Source: an uncultured delta proteobacterium (GTDB taxonomy: Bacteria; Myxococcota; Myxococcia; Myxococcales; Myxococcaceae). From it: a DNA stretch of 64,000 bases. Shown here in pieces: positions 52,245 to 64,000 of the stretch; the first letter of the stretch is position 1; each line of letters starts with the position of its first letter. Both the position numbers and the translations under genes were made by a program. Below the pieces are notes generated by a model. It did no database searches. It was given only the letters and a program-made list of their open reading frames with translations, and was not told the origin of the DNA. The stretch spans positions 992,001 to 1,056,000 of the forward strand of contig CAWCKH010000004.1 in assembly GCA_963796055.1 (NCBI GenBank), in the 5' to 3' direction.

Positions 52245-54800
52245 GTGTCCAAGTGCCTGAGATGCGGCGCCGAGTTGCCGCCACACGGCGACTGCACGGC
52301 CTGCGAACCGGGCACGCTCCCCGCACGACCGCCGCCGGAGATCCTCAGCCGGGAGATCCCGCTCGATCGCCGGCAGACGCCGCCCGCCACACCCGCGCGG
52401 GCGACCCCGGTGCCGTTCAAGCTGGACCCACCGGGCACCTCGGGGCCAGGGCCGCACATCCCGATGCTGACGCCCATCCCCCGGCCGGGACCGGCGTTCG
52501 ATCCGCGACCGCCCGTGCTCACGCCGGTACCGCATGCCGCTCCGGGCTCGGTGACCGACCCGGACCTTCGCTCGATCGCACCTCCCGGTCCGCCCTCGAC
52601 GGGGAGCACGGCCGGGACGGCGGGGTCCCCGCCGGGCCGCCCGCCAGCGCCGATCCCGACCACCACGACGCCGGCCTGGCCGCGCCCGGCGACGCCATCC
52701 GGCCCCACCACGGCGCCCGCCGCTGCTCCGCGCGCGCCCTCCGCCTCGAATGTTCCGGCAGCTCCCGGCGCTGGCCTTCCCCCACCTCGCACTGCCAGGG
52801 TCGAGCCTTCACTCCCGCCCGCGACGACCTCCGGCCTCCCTGGCCCGATGCGTCCACCGACCCTCGTTCCCGGACACGCAGGGACGGGTCCTGGCCTCGT
52901 GAGCGGCTCAGGCAGCCCCGGAAGCCCGGCGGGGTCGGGCGCACGACCCGCCCAGGCCCCGACCGGCGCGCCGGTGCCGGCGCCCACGATGCCGGGGATT
53001 CCGGCCACGCGGGCTCCCCAGCCGACCGCGCGCTTCGGGGATGAGCCGAGCCCATCTTCGTCCAGCAGCGCTCCCGCAGGTCCGGCTTCTGGAGCCCGAG
53101 CGCACCCGCTCTCCCCTGCGACCGGCAGCGGCGCGGCCTCGAAGCCGCCCACGGGTGACGAGCCGCTGACCTGGCCAAAGGTGGAGGTGTCCACCCCCGG
53201 GGGGCCATCGGGTCGAGTTCCGGTGGTGCCCTCCCGACCCCCGAGTGCACCGTCCGTTCCAGCAGCCGCGCCGGCGCCTCGCGCCGCCGAGGCGCCGCCG
53301 AGAGCTTCGGTCGCACCGTCCTCGCCCGCCGCCTCGCAGATGCCTCGCGCCCCCGACGCGCCACCGAGAACCTCGAGTGCACCGTCCGTTTCCACCGCGG
53401 CGCAGGTGCCTCCTGGCCTCGAGACGCCGCCGAGAACCTCGAGCGCGCCGTCCTCGCCCGCCGCCACGCAAACGCCTCGCGCCCCCGACGCGTCACCCAG
53501 AACCTCGAGCGCACCGTCCTCGCCCGCCGCCACGCAGATGCCTCGCGCCGCCGACGCGCCACCGAGAGCGTCGAGCGCGCCGTCGTCGCCCGCCGCCACG
53601 CAGATGCCTCGCGCCCCCGACGCGCCGCCGAGAACCTCGAGCGCACCGTCGTCGCCCGCCGCCACGCAAACGCCTCGCGCCCCCGACGCGATACCGAGAA
53701 CCTCGAGCGCGCCGTCCGTTCCCGCCGCGCCGCAGGTGGCTCCTGTCTTCGACACGCCGCCGAGAACCTCGAGCGCACCGTCCTCGCCCGCCGCCCCGCA
53801 AACGCCTCGCGGCCCCGACGCGCCACCCAGAACCTCGAGCGCACCGTCCTCGCCCGCCGCCTCACAGATGCCTCGCGCCCCCGACGCGCCACCCAGAACC
53901 TCGAGCGCACCGTCGTCGCCTTCCGCCAGCCCGGCTCCCTCGGCCCAGCCGGAGAACAGGATCCCCTCCCCCGCCGCGACGCCTCACCTCCCCGAGACAC
54001 CCCCGAGGACCACGGGTGGGCCGTCCGTTCCCACCCAGCCCGCGCAGACATCTCCGGTCGCCGTCGCGCGCTCTGCCGCGCCTCCTCCGATGGCCCCGCC
54101 AATCCTCACCCCCTCGGCTCCACGGACTACAGCGCCGCCAGCGCCGCTGTCGCCGAGCATGGCCGAGCTCATGGGCCCGGCACCCCTCCCCACTCCACGG
54201 ATCGAGCCCCGCCCGGAGCTGCCCGCAGCGGCGTTCGCCTCGGCGCCGTGGGAGCCCGGCCCCGCGGCCGCGAGCACGCCCGCGCCCGGCCTGGCGACCA
54301 GCCCTCCTCCGTCGGGAGAGCTCATCGAGGTCCGCGCCCGTCCCGCCGCGCTCTGGCAGCGCATCACCGCCTTCATCGTCGACGGTGCACTCGTCGGAGG
54401 TGTGCTCGCCCTCTACGTCGGGCTCGCGGCCGCGCTCATCGCTCCCCGGGGGGTCTCGGCGACCCAGCTCACCGGCATCGACGGCGTCATGGCCCGGGTG
54501 CACCAGCTCCACGCGGTGCTCGCTCCCTGCGTCGCGCTCGCGCTGGTGCTGGGACTGGTGTACGCCGCCACCTTCGCCCTCCTCTGGAACGGCCGCACCC
54601 CCGGCCGACGCCTGCTCGGCATCCGCCTGGTGGACCGGACCGGCCTCGCGCCGGCCCCGGGAAGGGCCATCGCCCGTGCCGCGCTGGCGGTGGTCTCCTT
54701 CGTCCCGTTCCTCGCCGGGTTCTGGCTCGCCCTGTTCGACCGGCGCGGGCAGACCCTTCACGACAAGCTCACCCAGACATTCGTCGTTCGTCCAGGCTGA
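52245..54800 (+). CDS. RDD-family membrane protein with N-terminal zinc ribbon and long Pro-rich linker
   Basis: CLRCG..CTAC; WQRITAFIVD, GRTPGRRLLGIRLV, QTLHDKLTQTFVV. Confidence 0.85.
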   Translation: MSKCLRCGAELPPHGDCTACEPGTLPARPPPEILSREIPLDRRQTPPATPARATPVPFKLDPPGTSGPGPHIPMLTPIPRPGPAFDPRPPVLTPVPHAAPGSVTDPDLRSIAPPGPPSTGSTAGTAGSPPGRPPAPIPTTTTPAWPRPATPSGPTTAPAAAPRAPSASNVPAAPGAGLPPPRTARVEPSLPPATTSGLPGPMRPPTLVPGHAGTGPGLVSGSGSPGSPAGSGARPAQAPTGAPVPAPTMPGIPATRAPQPTARFGDEPSPSSSSSAPAGPASGARAHPLSPATGSGAASKPPTGDEPLTWPKVEVSTPGGPSGRVPVVPSRPPSAPSVPAAAPAPRAAEAPPRASVAPSSPAASQMPRAPDAPPRTSSAPSVSTAAQVPPGLETPPRTSSAPSSPAATQTPRAPDASPRTSSAPSSPAATQMPRAADAPPRASSAPSSPAATQMPRAPDAPPRTSSAPSSPAATQTPRAPDAIPRTSSAPSVPAAPQVAPVFDTPPRTSSAPSSPAAPQTPRGPDAPPRTSSAPSSPAASQMPRAPDAPPRTSSAPSSPSASPAPSAQPENRIPSPAATPHLPETPPRTTGGPSVPTQPAQTSPVAVARSAAPPPMAPPILTPSAPRTTAPPAPLSPSMAELMGPAPLPTPRIEPRPELPAAAFASAPWEPGPAAASTPAPGLATSPPPSGELIEVRARPAALWQRITAFIVDGALVGGVLALYVGLAAALIAPRGVSATQLTGIDGVMARVHQLHAVLAPCVALALVLGLVYAATFALLWNGRTPGRRLLGIRLVDRTGLAPAPGRAIARAALAVVSFVPFLAGFWLALFDRRGQTLHDKLTQTFVVRPG
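53277..53936 (+). repeat. About ten 66-nt (22-aa) coding tandem repeats, PRAPDAPPRTSSAPSSPAATQM
   Basis: agaacctcgagcgcaccgtc recurring at a 66-nt period. Confidence 0.9.
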
Positions 54801-59334: not shown

Positions 59335-59537
59335 GAACATCCCGCTTCAGGGCGGTCTCGTTCCGGACCAGCCGTGCAGGTGTGACAACCGCGCACGATG
59401 TCGCCTGTGACACCCCTGGGGTCCTCGCACGCAACTTCCGGGTGTCTGCCGCCCCGCGGGTCTCGAAGGACTTGCGGGTGGTAGGCATTCGTGTGTCTCA
59501 TGGCGGCGCTGCAGGAGTACTTCTCCAGGGGGACCAC

Positions 59538-60620
59538 ATGCACCGCACGGCGAGATTCACCGTCGTCATGCTGCTCAGCAGCCTGGTGGTCATCGGGTGT
59601 GGGCAGGGGGCCGGAGTCGACACTTCCTCCTTCTCGGATCGGCAGATCTTCGAGGGCATCGTCTTCGGTGCCGGTCCGGTGGCGAGCCTGCTCCCGGAGG
59701 CACGCGACCAGCTGCGGCCGGAGCTCTACGTGAAGAGCGGGGGCGAGCTGAGCGCGCTGGCGGACGCACGGGGCGCGGTCATCGACGCGATCGAGCGTGC
59801 CCAGCCTGGCTTCCTCGCGGAATTCGCACGCGCAGCTCGGAGCGGGAATCCCGCTGAAGTACAGGCCATGCTCGCGCGAGCGGCCCGCGCGATCTCCGCA
59901 GCGTCCTCCGCCCTGACCGCGGCCCGCGGCCCGAACGTTCCGGTCGACCTCGTCGCCCGCGGGCCGAACGTCCCCGTCGACACCGCCCGCGGCCCGAACG
60001 TTCCGGTCGACCTCGTCGCCCGCGGGCCGAACGTCCCCGTCGACACCGCCCGCGGCCCGAACGTTCCGGTCGACCTCGTCGCCCGCGGGCCGAACGTCCC
60101 CGTCGACACCGCCCGCGGCCCGAACGTCCCGGTCGACCTCGTCGCCCGCGGCCCGAACGTTCCGGTCGACCTCGTCGCCCGCGGGCCGAACGTCCCCGTC
60201 GACACCGCCCGCGGCCCGAACGTTCCGGTCGACCTCGTCGCCCGTGGGCCGAACGTCCCCGTCGACACCGCCCGCAGCCCGAACGTTCCGGTCGACCTCG
60301 TCGCCCGTGGGCCGAACGTCCCCGTCGACACCGCCCGCAGCCCGAACGTTCCGGTCGACCTCGTCGCCCGTGGGCCGAACGTCCCCGTCGACACCGCCCG
60401 CAGCCCGAACGTTCCGGTCGACCTCGTCGCCCGTGGGCCGAACGTCCCCGTCGACACCGCCCGCAGCCCGAACGTTCCGGTCGACCTCGTCGCCCGTGGG
60501 CCGAACGTCCCCGTCGTGAGCGTGCATCCGGCCTGGAATCTCTTCACCAGCAGGCTCTTCTCCGAGCAGCTCGCCAACTCCGTGGCCATCACGCTCGCTC
60601 AGCGGGGCAGCGAGAACTGA
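59538..60620 (+). CDS. sdpC: SdpC-like precursor lipoprotein (360 aa) with a 19-copy repeat core
   Basis: AGGGGG RBS; VIGC lipobox; FSDRQIFEGIVFGAGPVASLLPE and ARSGNPAEVQAML resemble the SdpC pro-domain; first gene of an operon with sdpA/sdpB. Confidence 0.75.
   Translation: MHRTARFTVVMLLSSLVVIGCGQGAGVDTSSFSDRQIFEGIVFGAGPVASLLPEARDQLRPELYVKSGGELSALADARGAVIDAIERAQPGFLAEFARAARSGNPAEVQAMLARAARAISAASSALTAARGPNVPVDLVARGPNVPVDTARGPNVPVDLVARGPNVPVDTARGPNVPVDLVARGPNVPVDTARGPNVPVDLVARGPNVPVDLVARGPNVPVDTARGPNVPVDLVARGPNVPVDTARSPNVPVDLVARGPNVPVDTARSPNVPVDLVARGPNVPVDTARSPNVPVDLVARGPNVPVDTARSPNVPVDLVARGPNVPVVSVHPAWNLFTSRLFSEQLANSVAITLAQRGSEN
59922..60515 (+). repeat. Coding tandem array: 10 x 33 nt, 8 x 30 nt and one partial unit, AR[G/S]PNVPVD(LV/T)
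   Basis: Counted directly; in frame throughout. Confidence 0.97.
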
Positions 60621-61132
60621 GGGCAAGACCGCGACAGCTGGCGCGGCTGATCGCCGCGGCGATCGTCTTCCTGACGTGCGTCACGTGGCTCGACTCGCCC
60701 CTGCGGCCATCCGCCACCAAGCGGCTGCAGATGCTGGCCGTCGCTCCGCAGTTCTGGGGATTCTTCGCCTCTCCCCGCGAGGAGCGAACCGAGGTTTTCA
60801 GGCTCCGGAACGGAGCCTGGGAGCGTGCCGACGCCCCGCTGGCCGCAACGGCGAACCTCCTCGGTCTCCGCCGGGCGGTGGTGAACCACGGTGCCGAGTT
60901 CCGGACTCTCGAGGCGCAGGTGGGAAACGGGTGGAGTAGCGCCACGCTCACCCCCGAGCAGCTCCCAGACACCGCCGTCGAGCCGGTGGTGGTCCGCAAC
61001 CTCGCACGGCAACCACAGCTCTGCGGCGAGGTCCTTCTCGTCGCGCGGCCACCCCTGCCCTGGGCCTGGGCGCGCTCGAGCAGCAAAGTCGAGCTTCCCA
61101 CCCGGTATGCCCGGTTGAGCATCCGGTGTTGA
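60617..61132 (+). CDS. sdpA: SdpA-family protein (CTG start overlapping the upstream stop proposed; first ATG at 60731)
   Basis: PQFWGFFASPRE, NLLGLRR, PQLCG, PLPWAW, terminal Cys; in-frame TM segment upstream of the ATG. Confidence 0.82.
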   Translation: MRARPRQLARLIAAAIVFLTCVTWLDSPLRPSATKRLQMLAVAPQFWGFFASPREERTEVFRLRNGAWERADAPLAATANLLGLRRAVVNHGAEFRTLEAQVGNGWSSATLTPEQLPDTAVEPVVVRNLARQPQLCGEVLLVARPPLPWAWARSSSKVELPTRYARLSIRC

Positions 61133-62031
61133 CTCGCAGGGACAGACCCTGGACCAACGTCTACGGCGTCGCACGCTCGGTGCTCGCCCTGGCGACGCTG
61201 CTCACGCTGCTCGCCGATTCGAGCGAACGGCTCTTCCATCCGCTGGTGGTCGATGACCCCGGCGTCTTCGACCGGAGCGCCCTCGCCGGCGCGAGCCTGT
61301 TCTTTCTCGCTCGCAACCACTTGACCGCGGCGAAGCTGCTGGCGATCGCCGTCCTCGCGCTGGTCATCGTCGGCTGGCGACCACGCTTCACCGCACTGCC
61401 GCACTGGTGGATCTCGTACAGCTTCGCAGCATCGGCCTCGATGATCGACGGCGGCGACCAGATCGCCGCGACGCTCACATTGCTCCTCCTTCCCGTCGCG
61501 CTGACCGATCGTCGCTCTTCGCACTGGCGAGGGACCGGAAGCGGCGGTCCCGCTGCCTCCATCGCCGCGCAGACCGGGTGGGTCCTCATCCGGGTGCAGA
61601 TGGCGGTCGTCTATCTGTTCGCGGCGGTGCTGAAGTTTCCGAACGAGGAGTGGGCCAACGGCACCGCGCTGTACTACTGGTGGCGAAACCCCACCTTCGG
61701 CGCCGCGGGTCTGCTCCATCCGGTGACCGACTGGATCGGTCGGACAGTTCTGGTCGTCCCGCTCACCTGGAGCGTTCTGGTGGTCGAGCTATGCCTGGCC
61801 GCGGCACTGGTCGCTCCACTCAGGTTTCGCAGGATGCTGCTCCCCATCGGGTTGATCTTTCACCTCGGTATCGCAGTCACCCACGGCCTCATCACCTTCG
61901 CCCTCACCATGTCGGCCGCGCTGGTGCTCTACCTCCGCCCGGCCTGGCGACCGTTCGCTCTGCCCGAGCTCATCCGCCGCCCGGTCGCGCGCTCCTCGGA
62001 GCCGGTGGCGCGCGTCACCGTCGCGCCGTGA
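61126..62031 (+). CDS. sdpB: SdpB-family HTTM-domain membrane protein
   Basis: PWTNVYGVARS, GWRPRFTALPHWW, DGGDQI, TDRR..HW, IRVQMAVVY, EWANGTALYYW, FHLGIA. Confidence 0.9.
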   Translation: MLTRRDRPWTNVYGVARSVLALATLLTLLADSSERLFHPLVVDDPGVFDRSALAGASLFFLARNHLTAAKLLAIAVLALVIVGWRPRFTALPHWWISYSFAASASMIDGGDQIAATLTLLLLPVALTDRRSSHWRGTGSGGPAASIAAQTGWVLIRVQMAVVYLFAAVLKFPNEEWANGTALYYWWRNPTFGAAGLLHPVTDWIGRTVLVVPLTWSVLVVELCLAAALVAPLRFRRMLLPIGLIFHLGIAVTHGLITFALTMSAALVLYLRPAWRPFALPELIRRPVARSSEPVARVTVAP

Positions 62032-62085: not shown

Positions 62086-62280
62086 TTGCGCCCCGAGCAG
62101 CCGCCCGCCCAGCCTTCGACGACCGCCGAGCGGCACGCGTGGATGCTGCAGACCCTGCGTGCCGCCGTGGCCCGGGCCTGTCCGTCCGACCTCGCCGCAC
62201 ACCGCGAGGACCTCGTCCAGGCAGCCCTTCTCCGGGTCCTCGAGCGCGAGGGACGGGGTGAGCAGAACCATGTCCGGACG
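62086..62280 (+). pseudogene. 5' fragment of an ECF sigma factor (start of region 2 only)
   Basis: LRAAVARACPSDLAAHREDLVQAALLRVLE resembles ECF region 2 (EDLVQ); no region 4 follows. Confidence 0.55.
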
Positions 62281-62925
62281 GCTCCGGGCCGCCTGGGCCG
62301 CCCGTCCTCCCACCTCACCAGGGGCGGATTGCCCGCCGGCAGACGCCATCTGGGAGGCGGTCGCCGGGGATCGGTCCGAGGACGAGGTGCGGACGATGCT
62401 CGCCCACAGCGTCGGCTGTCCGGACTGCTCGGCGCTCTGGCGTCTGGCCCGCGAGCTGCGCAGCGCCGGAGAGGCGGACACTGCGGCAACCCTACCCGCA
62501 GAGCCGGTTCCGCTCCGGCGCCCGTCGGCGGGGTGCTGGCTCGTGGTCGCGGGCACGCTCGCCGCAGCAGCAGTGGTGGTGTTCGCGATCCTGCTCGGCG
62601 ACGGGACACGCGGTCCGTCCCCGGTCGTCCGTGGGACCGAGGAGTCCCGGCTCCGGGCCGATCCGGCCAGCGCGACGCTCGCGCGGGCACATCCGGTCCT
62701 CCGCTGGAGTGCGCACCGGAGGGCAGCCGCTACACCGTGGTGGTCTCCAAGCGTGACCTCACCGTGCTCTACCGGAAGAGCGGTCTGGTGACCTCGGAGC
62801 TCGAGCTCCCGGCCGAGGCGCTCACCGACGTCCCCGCGGGCGGCGAGATCGTCTGGCGGGTGGAGGCGATCGCTCCCGGCGGTCGCCGGATCTCCTCGGA
62901 GGCGTTCCTCAGCCGCGTACAGTAG
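62270..62925 (+). CDS. Zinc-binding anti-sigma-like membrane protein; frameshift near 62715
   Basis: CPPADAIW..HSVGCPDC (HxxxCxxC), TM segment, periplasmic beta domain ending WRVEA..SSEAF. Confidence 0.65.
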
Positions 62926-63042: not shown

Positions 63043-63393
63043 ATGCGCAAGGACTCCCCGGTCGTCGCCTGCTCCATCGCCGCGCTGATCTTGGTCGTCA
63101 CCGGCGCCGCGCTCGTACCGTCCTCCGCCTGGCGCGCAGCGTCCGTCGTCGCCCGCCTCGCCCCCACGCTGGTCACCACCGCTTCCGCCCACGGGTCGAC
63201 CGCCGCGAGAGCGGCCGGGCTGGGTGTGCGCGCCGCGCCCGGACTGTTCCGCGAGGCTCCCCCGGCCGAGCGCCAGTCCGCGCCTCAGGTCCGGGTGTGC
63301 CGGCGTGACGCCCCGCGTTCGTGCAACCGGCCCGTGGAGTGCCCGCGGCAGATGATCCAGCGGCTGCACCTGATCTTCCCGATCGACGGCTGA
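63043..63393 (+). CDS. Small hypothetical protein with N-terminal hydrophobic segment
   Basis: GAGG RBS then ATG; hydrophobic N-terminus; three C-terminal Cys. Confidence 0.45.
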   Translation: MRKDSPVVACSIAALILVVTGAALVPSSAWRAASVVARLAPTLVTTASAHGSTAARAAGLGVRAAPGLFREAPPAERQSAPQVRVCRRDAPRSCNRPVECPRQMIQRLHLIFPIDG

Positions 63394-63516: not shown

Positions 63517-64000
63517 ATGCCTGCACTTCTCCGCCGTCTTCTTCTCGCTCCCATCCCGCGGCTCGCCTGGACCGGCGTCCTCGCGTGGCTGCTGGCGCGG
63601 ATCCTCTTCTGGCTCGCGCCGTCCCTGGCGCGGGCGCCGAACATCCTGCTGACCGGGGCGATCCGGAACGCGGTGATGACCGTGATCGTCTTCTCGCTCG
63701 GCCTCTGGCTCTTCGAGCGGAAGACGCCGCGTGAGGCGGGGCTCGCACCGGCGCGCGCGGTGCCGGACACGGTGCGCGGGTTTCTCCTCGGTGCGGCGTT
63801 GCTCACCGCGGTCACCGGGGTGCTGGCGCTGGCAGGCTGCTACCACCTGGTCGGGTGGGCGCCGGTGCCGGAGGGCACGACGCGGGGCGCGCTCCTCGGC
63901 CGGGTGCTGCTGCTCTTCTTCGCGGTCGCCATCTTCGAGGAGGTGGCGGTCCGCGGCATCGTCTTCCGCCTGCTCGAGCAGGGCATCGGGACCTGGCTGG
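63517..64000 (+). CDS. CPBP (Abi/CAAX) intramembrane metalloprotease (3' end truncated by window edge)
   Basis: My own translation from ATG 63517: several TM segments and AIFEEVAVRGIVFRLLE (EExxxR motif). Confidence 0.85.
   Translation, partial: MPALLRRLLLAPIPRLAWTGVLAWLLARILFWLAPSLARAPNILLTGAIRNAVMTVIVFSLGLWLFERKTPREAGLAPARAVPDTVRGFLLGAALLTAVTGVLALAGCYHLVGWAPVPEGTTRGALLGRVLLLFFAVAIFEEVAVRGIVFRLLEQGIGTWL

Follow-up and report, generated by a model that had tools for sequence, protein, structure and literature searches.

In Bacillus subtilis, the core slot of the SdpC precursor yields the toxin SDP, for which both SdpA and SdpB are required (PMC6818787); the available passages nowhere state which chemistry the two proteins carry out. 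The locus described here encodes proteins of all three types. Linaridins are epimerised by CypH and CypL, an HTTM protein and its partner, and multi-core RiPP precursors are known from the cyanobactins and microviridins. According to the accessible parts of the sources, linaridin clusters encode HTTM and LinL proteins (PMC9927463), and linaridins and polytheonamides contain D-residues (PMC10373908). In the open literature, with subscription journals and bioRxiv supplements outside the scope of the survey, we found no report of repeat-core SdpC precursors or of SdpAB chemistry, and PMC11002830 and PMC10885120 held nothing on a repeat-core SdpC system. SdpABC loci, precursors with several cores and RiPP precursors that carry a lipid are each known. 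In the open literature surveyed, no account was found of the three combined, of a hypervariable Asn-Phi-Pro array spread across a genus, or of the Asn period in ordinary cores.

An SdpABC-type operon with a peptide array in the toxin-core slot

The window, the whole stretch of 64,000 nucleotides analysed here, holds a precursor gene followed by sdpA and sdpB, with overlaps of 4 and 7 bases between successive frames (Table 1). The first-pass annotation had described three overlapping genes, 19 units and a single lipobox Cys, and all of these were exact on recount. The array (aa 129 to 327) consists of six ARGPNVPVDLV, four ARSPNVPVDLV, eight ARGPNVPVDT and one partial unit and is followed by a 33-aa tail; the sole Cys of the precursor is residue 21, within the lipobox. 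The copy number of 19 is as assembled. Short-read contigs covered 93 bases within the array with zero mismatches, none of them crossed the whole array, and the runs may be those of the source study. The units inside one gene are near-identical at the DNA level, indicating recent expansions. The genome's high-GC3 reading frames, 1,574,385 residues in all, contain 429 instances of Asn-[VILM]-Pro, and from this background about 0.05 would be expected per 200 aa, compared with the 19 seen.

Table 1. Features of the precursor-sdpA-sdpB locus and its flanks (window coordinates)
Feature	Position	Strand	Basis or remark
Conserved upstream non-coding blocks (TGTGAC...CAC inverted-repeat-like box, GGGTC..GACTTG box, ATTCGTGTGTCT box); putative promoter/operator	59379..59502	+	Invariant columns in 7 aligned same-genus intergenic regions
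Ribosome-binding site, GGGGG run ahead of ATG	59526..59534	+	Conserved in same-genus intergenic alignment
Precursor (SdpC-type) ORF	59538..60620	+	360 aa
Lipoprotein signal peptide, lipobox VIGC with Cys21	59538..59600	+	Pattern match; predicted
SdpC-type helical pro-domain, aa 26-128	59613..59921	+	TIGR04032, E 4e-16; AlphaFold2 pLDDT >90
Array of 19 units of 10-11 aa, one Asn-Val-Pro each, in toxin-core slot	59922..60518	+	Predicted disordered
C-terminal helix L-x-x-E-Q-L-x-x-S-V-A, conserved in wider SdpC family	60519..60620	+	pLDDT 86-96
SdpA, start uncertain, probably CTG	60617..61132	+	TIGR04034, PF17418
SdpB, HTTM membrane protein	61126..62031	+	TIGR04033
Broken ECF sigma/anti-sigma remnant, outside core system	62086..62925	+	Deletion and one frameshift
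116-aa genus-restricted small protein, candidate accessory	63043..63393	+	10/12 same-genus genomes
Start of Rce1-like (CPBP) membrane protease gene (317 aa, runs beyond window); candidate processing/immunity	63517..64000	+	PF02517, 66.6 bits; syntenic

The proposed SdpC-type pro-domain was borne out by the HMM check, in which TIGR04032 (toxin_SdpC) matched residues 29 to 125 of the precursor with its positions 4 to 96, the first 96 of 172 (59.4 bits). The whole precursor scored 56.9 bits, below the cut-off of 99.2. Judged by cut-off and core, it is outside the SdpC toxin family, yet it is built on the same machinery. The AlphaFold2 model showed a confident pro-domain (approximately aa 26 to 129) and tail helix (331 to 354), with pLDDT below 50 in the array, and the C-terminal helix probably packs on the pro-domain. 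A fold search with this model gave nothing meaningful (best Z, 4.9). A second SdpC or SdpB copy elsewhere in the same genome was considered and rejected.

SdpA and SdpB are genuine, since both scored above their family cut-offs, SdpA with 61.3 against 53.1 for TIGR04034 (and 81 bits for PF17418) and SdpB with 247.9 against 178.4 for TIGR04033. The CTG start of SdpA at 60617 overlaps the precursor stop; the first ATG is at 60731, and with this start the N-terminal hydrophobic helix would be lost.

The 116-aa gene, located 3' of sdpB, was present in none of 48 genomes outside the genus, and the CPBP gene is syntenic with the cluster, as are its other neighbours. The cluster immediately follows pccB in all six genomes whose extracted region extends that far, and the interval that harbours it shrinks to roughly 0.8 kb in G024, a member of another genus. 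In the ECF remnant, a deletion fuses sigma aa 1 to 66 to anti-sigma aa 9. In G007, G008, and G001, sdpB and the small gene have no sigma module between them, and the module was therefore rejected as a part of the system; in G003 and G010 the sigma and anti-sigma genes are intact and accompanied by a CHAT/TPR gene. SdpI immunity (PF13630) was not found in the 98.5% complete genome, and no MNIO family member was found among the 35 neighbor proteins scanned (of 149 called). The genome contains menA and menD. A prolyl oligopeptidase (S9) gene lies a few kilobases downstream only in G004 and G005 (L075:7798-9318, L080:4057-6078) and was not seen at the other compared loci. Elsewhere in the window, positions 52245 to 54800 encode a Pro-rich protein in which a 22-aa (66-bp) repeat recurs about 10 times and whose hydrophobic C-terminal part may be RDD-like. 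Several intergenic sites between 2798 and 52184 carry short REP-like repeats, whose units are GGCACCTCG, counted 15 times in the window, and GTAACGAGGTGT.

Distribution of the array in the genus

An SdpB match was found in 11 of the 12 other same-genus genomes, 10 of them above the cut-off, and the shortfalls correspond to one contig-end fragment and one genome that is 68% complete. The array was present at the same locus in all 10 same-genus genomes with a readable precursor (12 examined), with 2, at least 5, at least 5, 24 and 14, at least 5, 18, 13, 2, 6, and 5 units; two precursor copies in G004 carry frameshifts as assembled, and contig ends truncate three others. The array is thus not the strain-private slippage that the first-pass annotation had named as a possible refutation of its reading. 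Among database homologues, all 22 had at least two units and matched PF26137. Near-identical metagenome contigs carried 1 to 4 units, to which short-read collapse may contribute; short-read assemblies may collapse arrays and blur all such copy numbers. The compared genomes are related, and their counts are not independent.

The pro-domains formed one clade (support 95/97; 23 rows, few columns), as did the SdpB proteins of the genus (support 100/100, with a long stem of 0.92). Both sdpA and sdpB are intact and 54 to 88% conserved across the genus. The best explanation is that the array system is genus-wide and vertically inherited. One clade member (P0166) is labeled Gemmatimonadales; it lies on a 2-kb contig and is probably a mis-binned fragment.

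The Asn motif is general, and the Arg delimiter is local

In a search without a preset motif, Asn-[VILM]-Pro was the sole tripeptide repeated in all 24 precursors. Across 31 precursors with 183 units, plus metagenome contigs, unit length and spacing ranged from 8 to 30 aa and copy number from 1 to 24. Within the 31 precursors, R/K occurred in 165 of the 183 units and D/E in 158, leaving 25 units without acidic residues. Trypsin-type sites (R/K not before Pro) were found in 143 of 183 units; 20 precursors had such a site in every unit, 5 had it in no unit, and one precursor was entirely without basic residues. A universal Arg cut was rejected on account of the five precursors without a trypsin-type site. 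This conservation pattern indicates that the Asn motif is general, whereas PNVPVD units and Arg delimiters are local variants. Asn stands as a likely target, in line with the Asn/Asp modification that the first-pass annotation had considered possible; its PNVPVD core does not hold as the general unit, and neither do Arg-delimited cores.

A lipobox was found in most complete clade members, and the tail helix was retained in all of them. A subclade with 26- to 30-aa Pro/Arg-rich units has no lipobox, indicating that tethering is not required.

Contrast with the wider SdpC family and periodic Asn in its cores

A profile search of the SdpC family gave 450 matches, of which the best 150 were examined; 130 of these were distant, and the 124 with at least 40 residues after the pro-domain entered the core comparison. 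A hydrophobic core was defined as a 19-residue hydropathy mean of at least 1.6, and five fragment or frameshifted clade entries were excluded. Among the best 150 of 450, such a core was present in 114 of 124 distant homologues versus none of 27 clade members, and none of the 124 had two Asn-Phi-Pro motifs or a comparable array. The best mean in the precursor of the window was 0.75, so the loss of the hydrophobic toxin core claimed earlier is upheld. Two Cys were found in just 4 of the 124 distant cores (best 150 of 450), indicating that a disulfide is not a family rule and that its absence here, to which weight had been given, carries little information. A lipobox, by a loose pattern, was also found in 59 of 126 hydrophobic-core relatives (best 150 of 450), and the tail helix is family-wide in SdpC proteins. 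Neither is special to this gene, and the family-wide helix identifies the array as an insert in the toxin-core slot.

In the distant hydrophobic cores (P0032-P0164, from the best 150 of 450), Asn at a spacing of six gave a count of 36 compared with 6.6 in shuffled sequences (z = 12.5; 104 dereplicated), and a spacing of 12 was likewise high. At the strictest dereplication (30%), the spacing of six was found in 11 of 54 cores from the same best 150 of 450, versus 4.2 expected, with 0 of 500 shuffles reaching this value. The signal was absent from the pro-domains and from the arrays of the array clade itself. In addition, Asn followed by V/I/L/M was enriched in the distant cores (62 versus 46; 1 of 1,000 shuffles; best 150 of 450). 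Beta-6.3 helices, in which D and L residues alternate, are marked by an Asn ladder with a step of six residues, as in polytheonamide. The Asn at every sixth residue of the distant cores, matched to this pattern of D/L beta-helical peptides, favors SdpAB as an epimerase and predicts D-residues in SDP-family toxins.

Polar repeat cores linked to sdpAB also occur in a second lineage of myxobacteria (L078:8641-9327, L079:8541-9197, P0173, P0174). These either have Asn at every fifth position (xxNTx; noted for L066, P0173, and P0174) or are rich in Tyr and Asp.

SdpB shares a membrane core with vitamin K-dependent carboxylases

The invariant residues of SdpB are G109-D111, K170, W176, H246, F258, and M262; all 30 rows of the alignment share K170, W176, and F258. 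The SdpB profile matched human GGCX (E = 4.5e-7); a single-sequence search of solved structures with SdpB gave no match, and the profile alone matched. GGCX was the top fold match for SdpB (Z 8.2, rmsd 3.9, 177 aligned), which is modest for a helical protein. SdpB K170, W176, E221, H246, F258, and M262 aligned with GGCX K218, W223, D263, H287, F299, and M303, respectively. In GGCX, catalysis depends on K218, the catalytic residue, while F299 is part of the wall that separates the Glu and vitamin K pockets, according to the available part of the source (10.1101/2025.02.09.637231). GGCX Asn290 aligned with SdpB Ile249, and GGCX Asn159-His160 landed beside the SdpB DGGD motif by ungapped extension, the alignment proper beginning at GGCX 166. 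From these positions, the Glu-pocket residues of GGCX appear to be replaced in SdpB, the DGGD motif at N159/H160 being an extrapolation. At 301 aa, SdpB has no room for a GGCX-type C-terminal (propeptide-binding) domain, for which SdpA could stand in. Beside K170, the SdpB proteins of the genus carry His165Phe in 12 of 12 rows (others have His in 13 of 14) and Gly169Leu in 11 of 12.

As far as the accessible text of a preprint goes (10.64898/2026.08.19.745780), a modeled DUF5819-HTTM pair resembles a GGCX-like enzyme split in two, and the residue that MloH carboxylates is an aspartyl. SdpA may be the counterpart of DUF5819. It gave an atlas match of 0.83 to a cluster with 27% DUF5819, a weak lead only, and its comparison with the DUF5819 profile (3 sequences) was not significant (probability 0.4%, E = 0.14). 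DUF5819 and HTTM pairs were also seen in other Myxococcaceae (L042:3306-5324, L068, L069), followed by a small exported peptide. This peptide, whose core is rich in Tyr, Ile, and Glu and whose end is a conserved D..FD[NQ], is a candidate precursor of a related undescribed system.

For the chemistry at Asn-[VILM]-Pro, a mass-neutral L-to-D epimerisation at or beside Asn has, by analogy, slightly less than an even chance in our judgment. Carboxylation seems improbable, Asn-directed cleavage or cyclisation equally so, and some other reaction would be still less expected. The link between beta-helices and an epimerase consists of the sequence period and the chemistry of polytheonamide and linaridins. 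The array points to Asn-hydrophobic-Pro as the substrate of poorly understood maturation enzymes. Because the array clade offers soluble, repetitive natural substrates with one invariant motif, it would give a direct handle on the SdpAB reaction.

Proposed mechanism and alternative explanations

We give roughly even credence to an exported multi-core precursor on which SdpAB modifies every Asn-Phi-Pro and from which cleavage yields numerous short peptides that are not membrane-active. The precursor would be exported and, as the lipobox motif suggests, lipidated at Cys21 in most members. In the predicted arrangement, the pro-domain and C-terminal helix together make up a folded carrier, and the array loops out of it where the normal core would be. 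SdpA and SdpB would together constitute a membrane enzyme on a vitamin K-dependent carboxylase core, in which Lys170, by homology, may drive proton-abstraction chemistry at every Asn-[VILM]-Pro. A general exported protease or the neighboring CPBP protease might then cut the loop, here most simply after Arg, which would release approximately 18 peptides of 10 to 11 residues per precursor. The calculated masses of the tryptic peptides without modification are 1024.53, 1135.64, and 1165.65 Da. Since the array products are polar, they are more likely to be signals or protease-resistant ligands than pore formers. The free copy number (1 to 4 in near-identical contigs and up to 24) is expected for independent cores, and the lack of a hydrophobic core together with the lack of an SdpI match argues against an SDP-like toxin. 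Against this multi-core reading, no universal cut site was found among the 31 precursors, and the CPBP protease is a candidate by synteny only.

The absence of a universal cut site also keeps alive an alternative that we regard as unlikely, in which the product is an intact lipid-anchored protein, modified by SdpAB at each Asn-Phi-Pro, whose loop forms a surface or periplasmic brush. For example, carboxylation would give a Gla-like metal-binding polymer, or epimerisation a protease-resistant chain. The lipobox of most complete members, the tail helix kept in all of them, and the SdpB-GGCX homology with the menaquinone pathway agree with such a protein, and RiPP-lipoprotein hybrids exist, as far as the available passages of PMC13056109 describe them. 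However, the lipobox of hydrophobic-core relatives (59 of 126, best 150 of 450) means that it is no marker of the array type, one subclade is without it, single-unit forms exist, and the family precedent in the accessible part of PMC6818787 is core excision.

A second alternative, which strikes us as distinctly improbable, is that Asn-Phi-Pro is a recognition or cleavage signal at which SdpAB cuts, and possibly cyclises, and that the products are the variable 8- to 30-aa spacers, such as the Pro/Arg-rich units found in the subclade with long units. The invariant part of multi-core precursors such as those of cyanobactins is often a recognition sequence, and Asn-Phi-Pro is the sole feature of all units, basic sites not being universal. 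Moreover, SdpAB are needed for processing of SdpC to SDP in the available passages of PMC6818787. However, SdpB resembles a carboxylase core and no known protease, and the Asn residues of the distant cores (best 150 of 450) are regularly spaced inside the hydrophobic stretch rather than at its ends. That the gene is a decayed toxin, a functionless remnant amplified by slippage, is very improbable: the recent expansions and the broken sigma genes nearby would fit, but the motif has persisted through separate expansions of unrelated units, neither sdpA nor sdpB is broken and both are conserved as given above, and the upstream elements are conserved.

Beyond the multi-core reading itself, we tentatively offer a wider and rather doubtful synthesis. 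SdpAB would be a non-radical membrane peptide epimerase derived from a vitamin K-dependent carboxylase core, and ordinary SdpC cores would be D/L beta-helical pore formers with an i, i+6 Asn ladder. The genus would have repurposed the same machine to produce short D-residue peptides from hypervariable multi-core precursors, perhaps as signals specific to each species, and the second myxobacterial lineage would have evolved its Asn-every-five repeats independently. The genus-wide, species-variable peptide array suggests an undescribed signaling or surface system in soil myxobacteria.

Comparison with known systems

The locus resembles B. subtilis sdpABC/yitPOM, as described in the available passages of PMC6818787, in its exported precursor, SdpC pro-domain, C-terminal helix, and adjoining SdpA and SdpB, and its variable segment occupies the same slot. 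In contrast to sdpABC, the array clade has tandem polar units and no hydrophobic core (0 of 27). It also differs in that the array genome gave no SdpI match and the precursor falls below the TIGR04032 cut-off. With the HTTM and LinL proteins of linaridins, insofar as the accessible sources describe them, it shares an HTTM membrane protein with a small partner and a ribosomal peptide substrate. Unlike in linaridins, the array precursor is large and exported with a folded pro-domain, and no methyltransferase or decarboxylase was seen at the loci.

SdpB shares its membrane core, catalytic Lys, and quinone-pocket Trp and Phe with the vitamin K-dependent carboxylases (GGCX, MloH, and the predicted DUF5819-HTTM complex), as far as the available parts of the sources show. 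Unlike GGCX, it appears to be without the propeptide-binding domain, its Glu-pocket residues appear replaced, and the presumed substrate motif has Asn in place of Glu. The precursor is like those of multi-core RiPPs in its repeated units, conserved motif, and variable copy number. In contrast to multi-core RiPPs and DAG-RiPPs, the enzymes here are an HTTM protein and SdpA instead of YcaO, ATP-grasp, or MNIO enzymes, and, unlike in multi-core RiPPs, the units are predicted to be looped out from a folded carrier. With the DAG-RiPPs, in the accessible portion of PMC13056109, the system shares a lipoprotein signal on the precursor of a modified peptide, here as a predicted lipobox.
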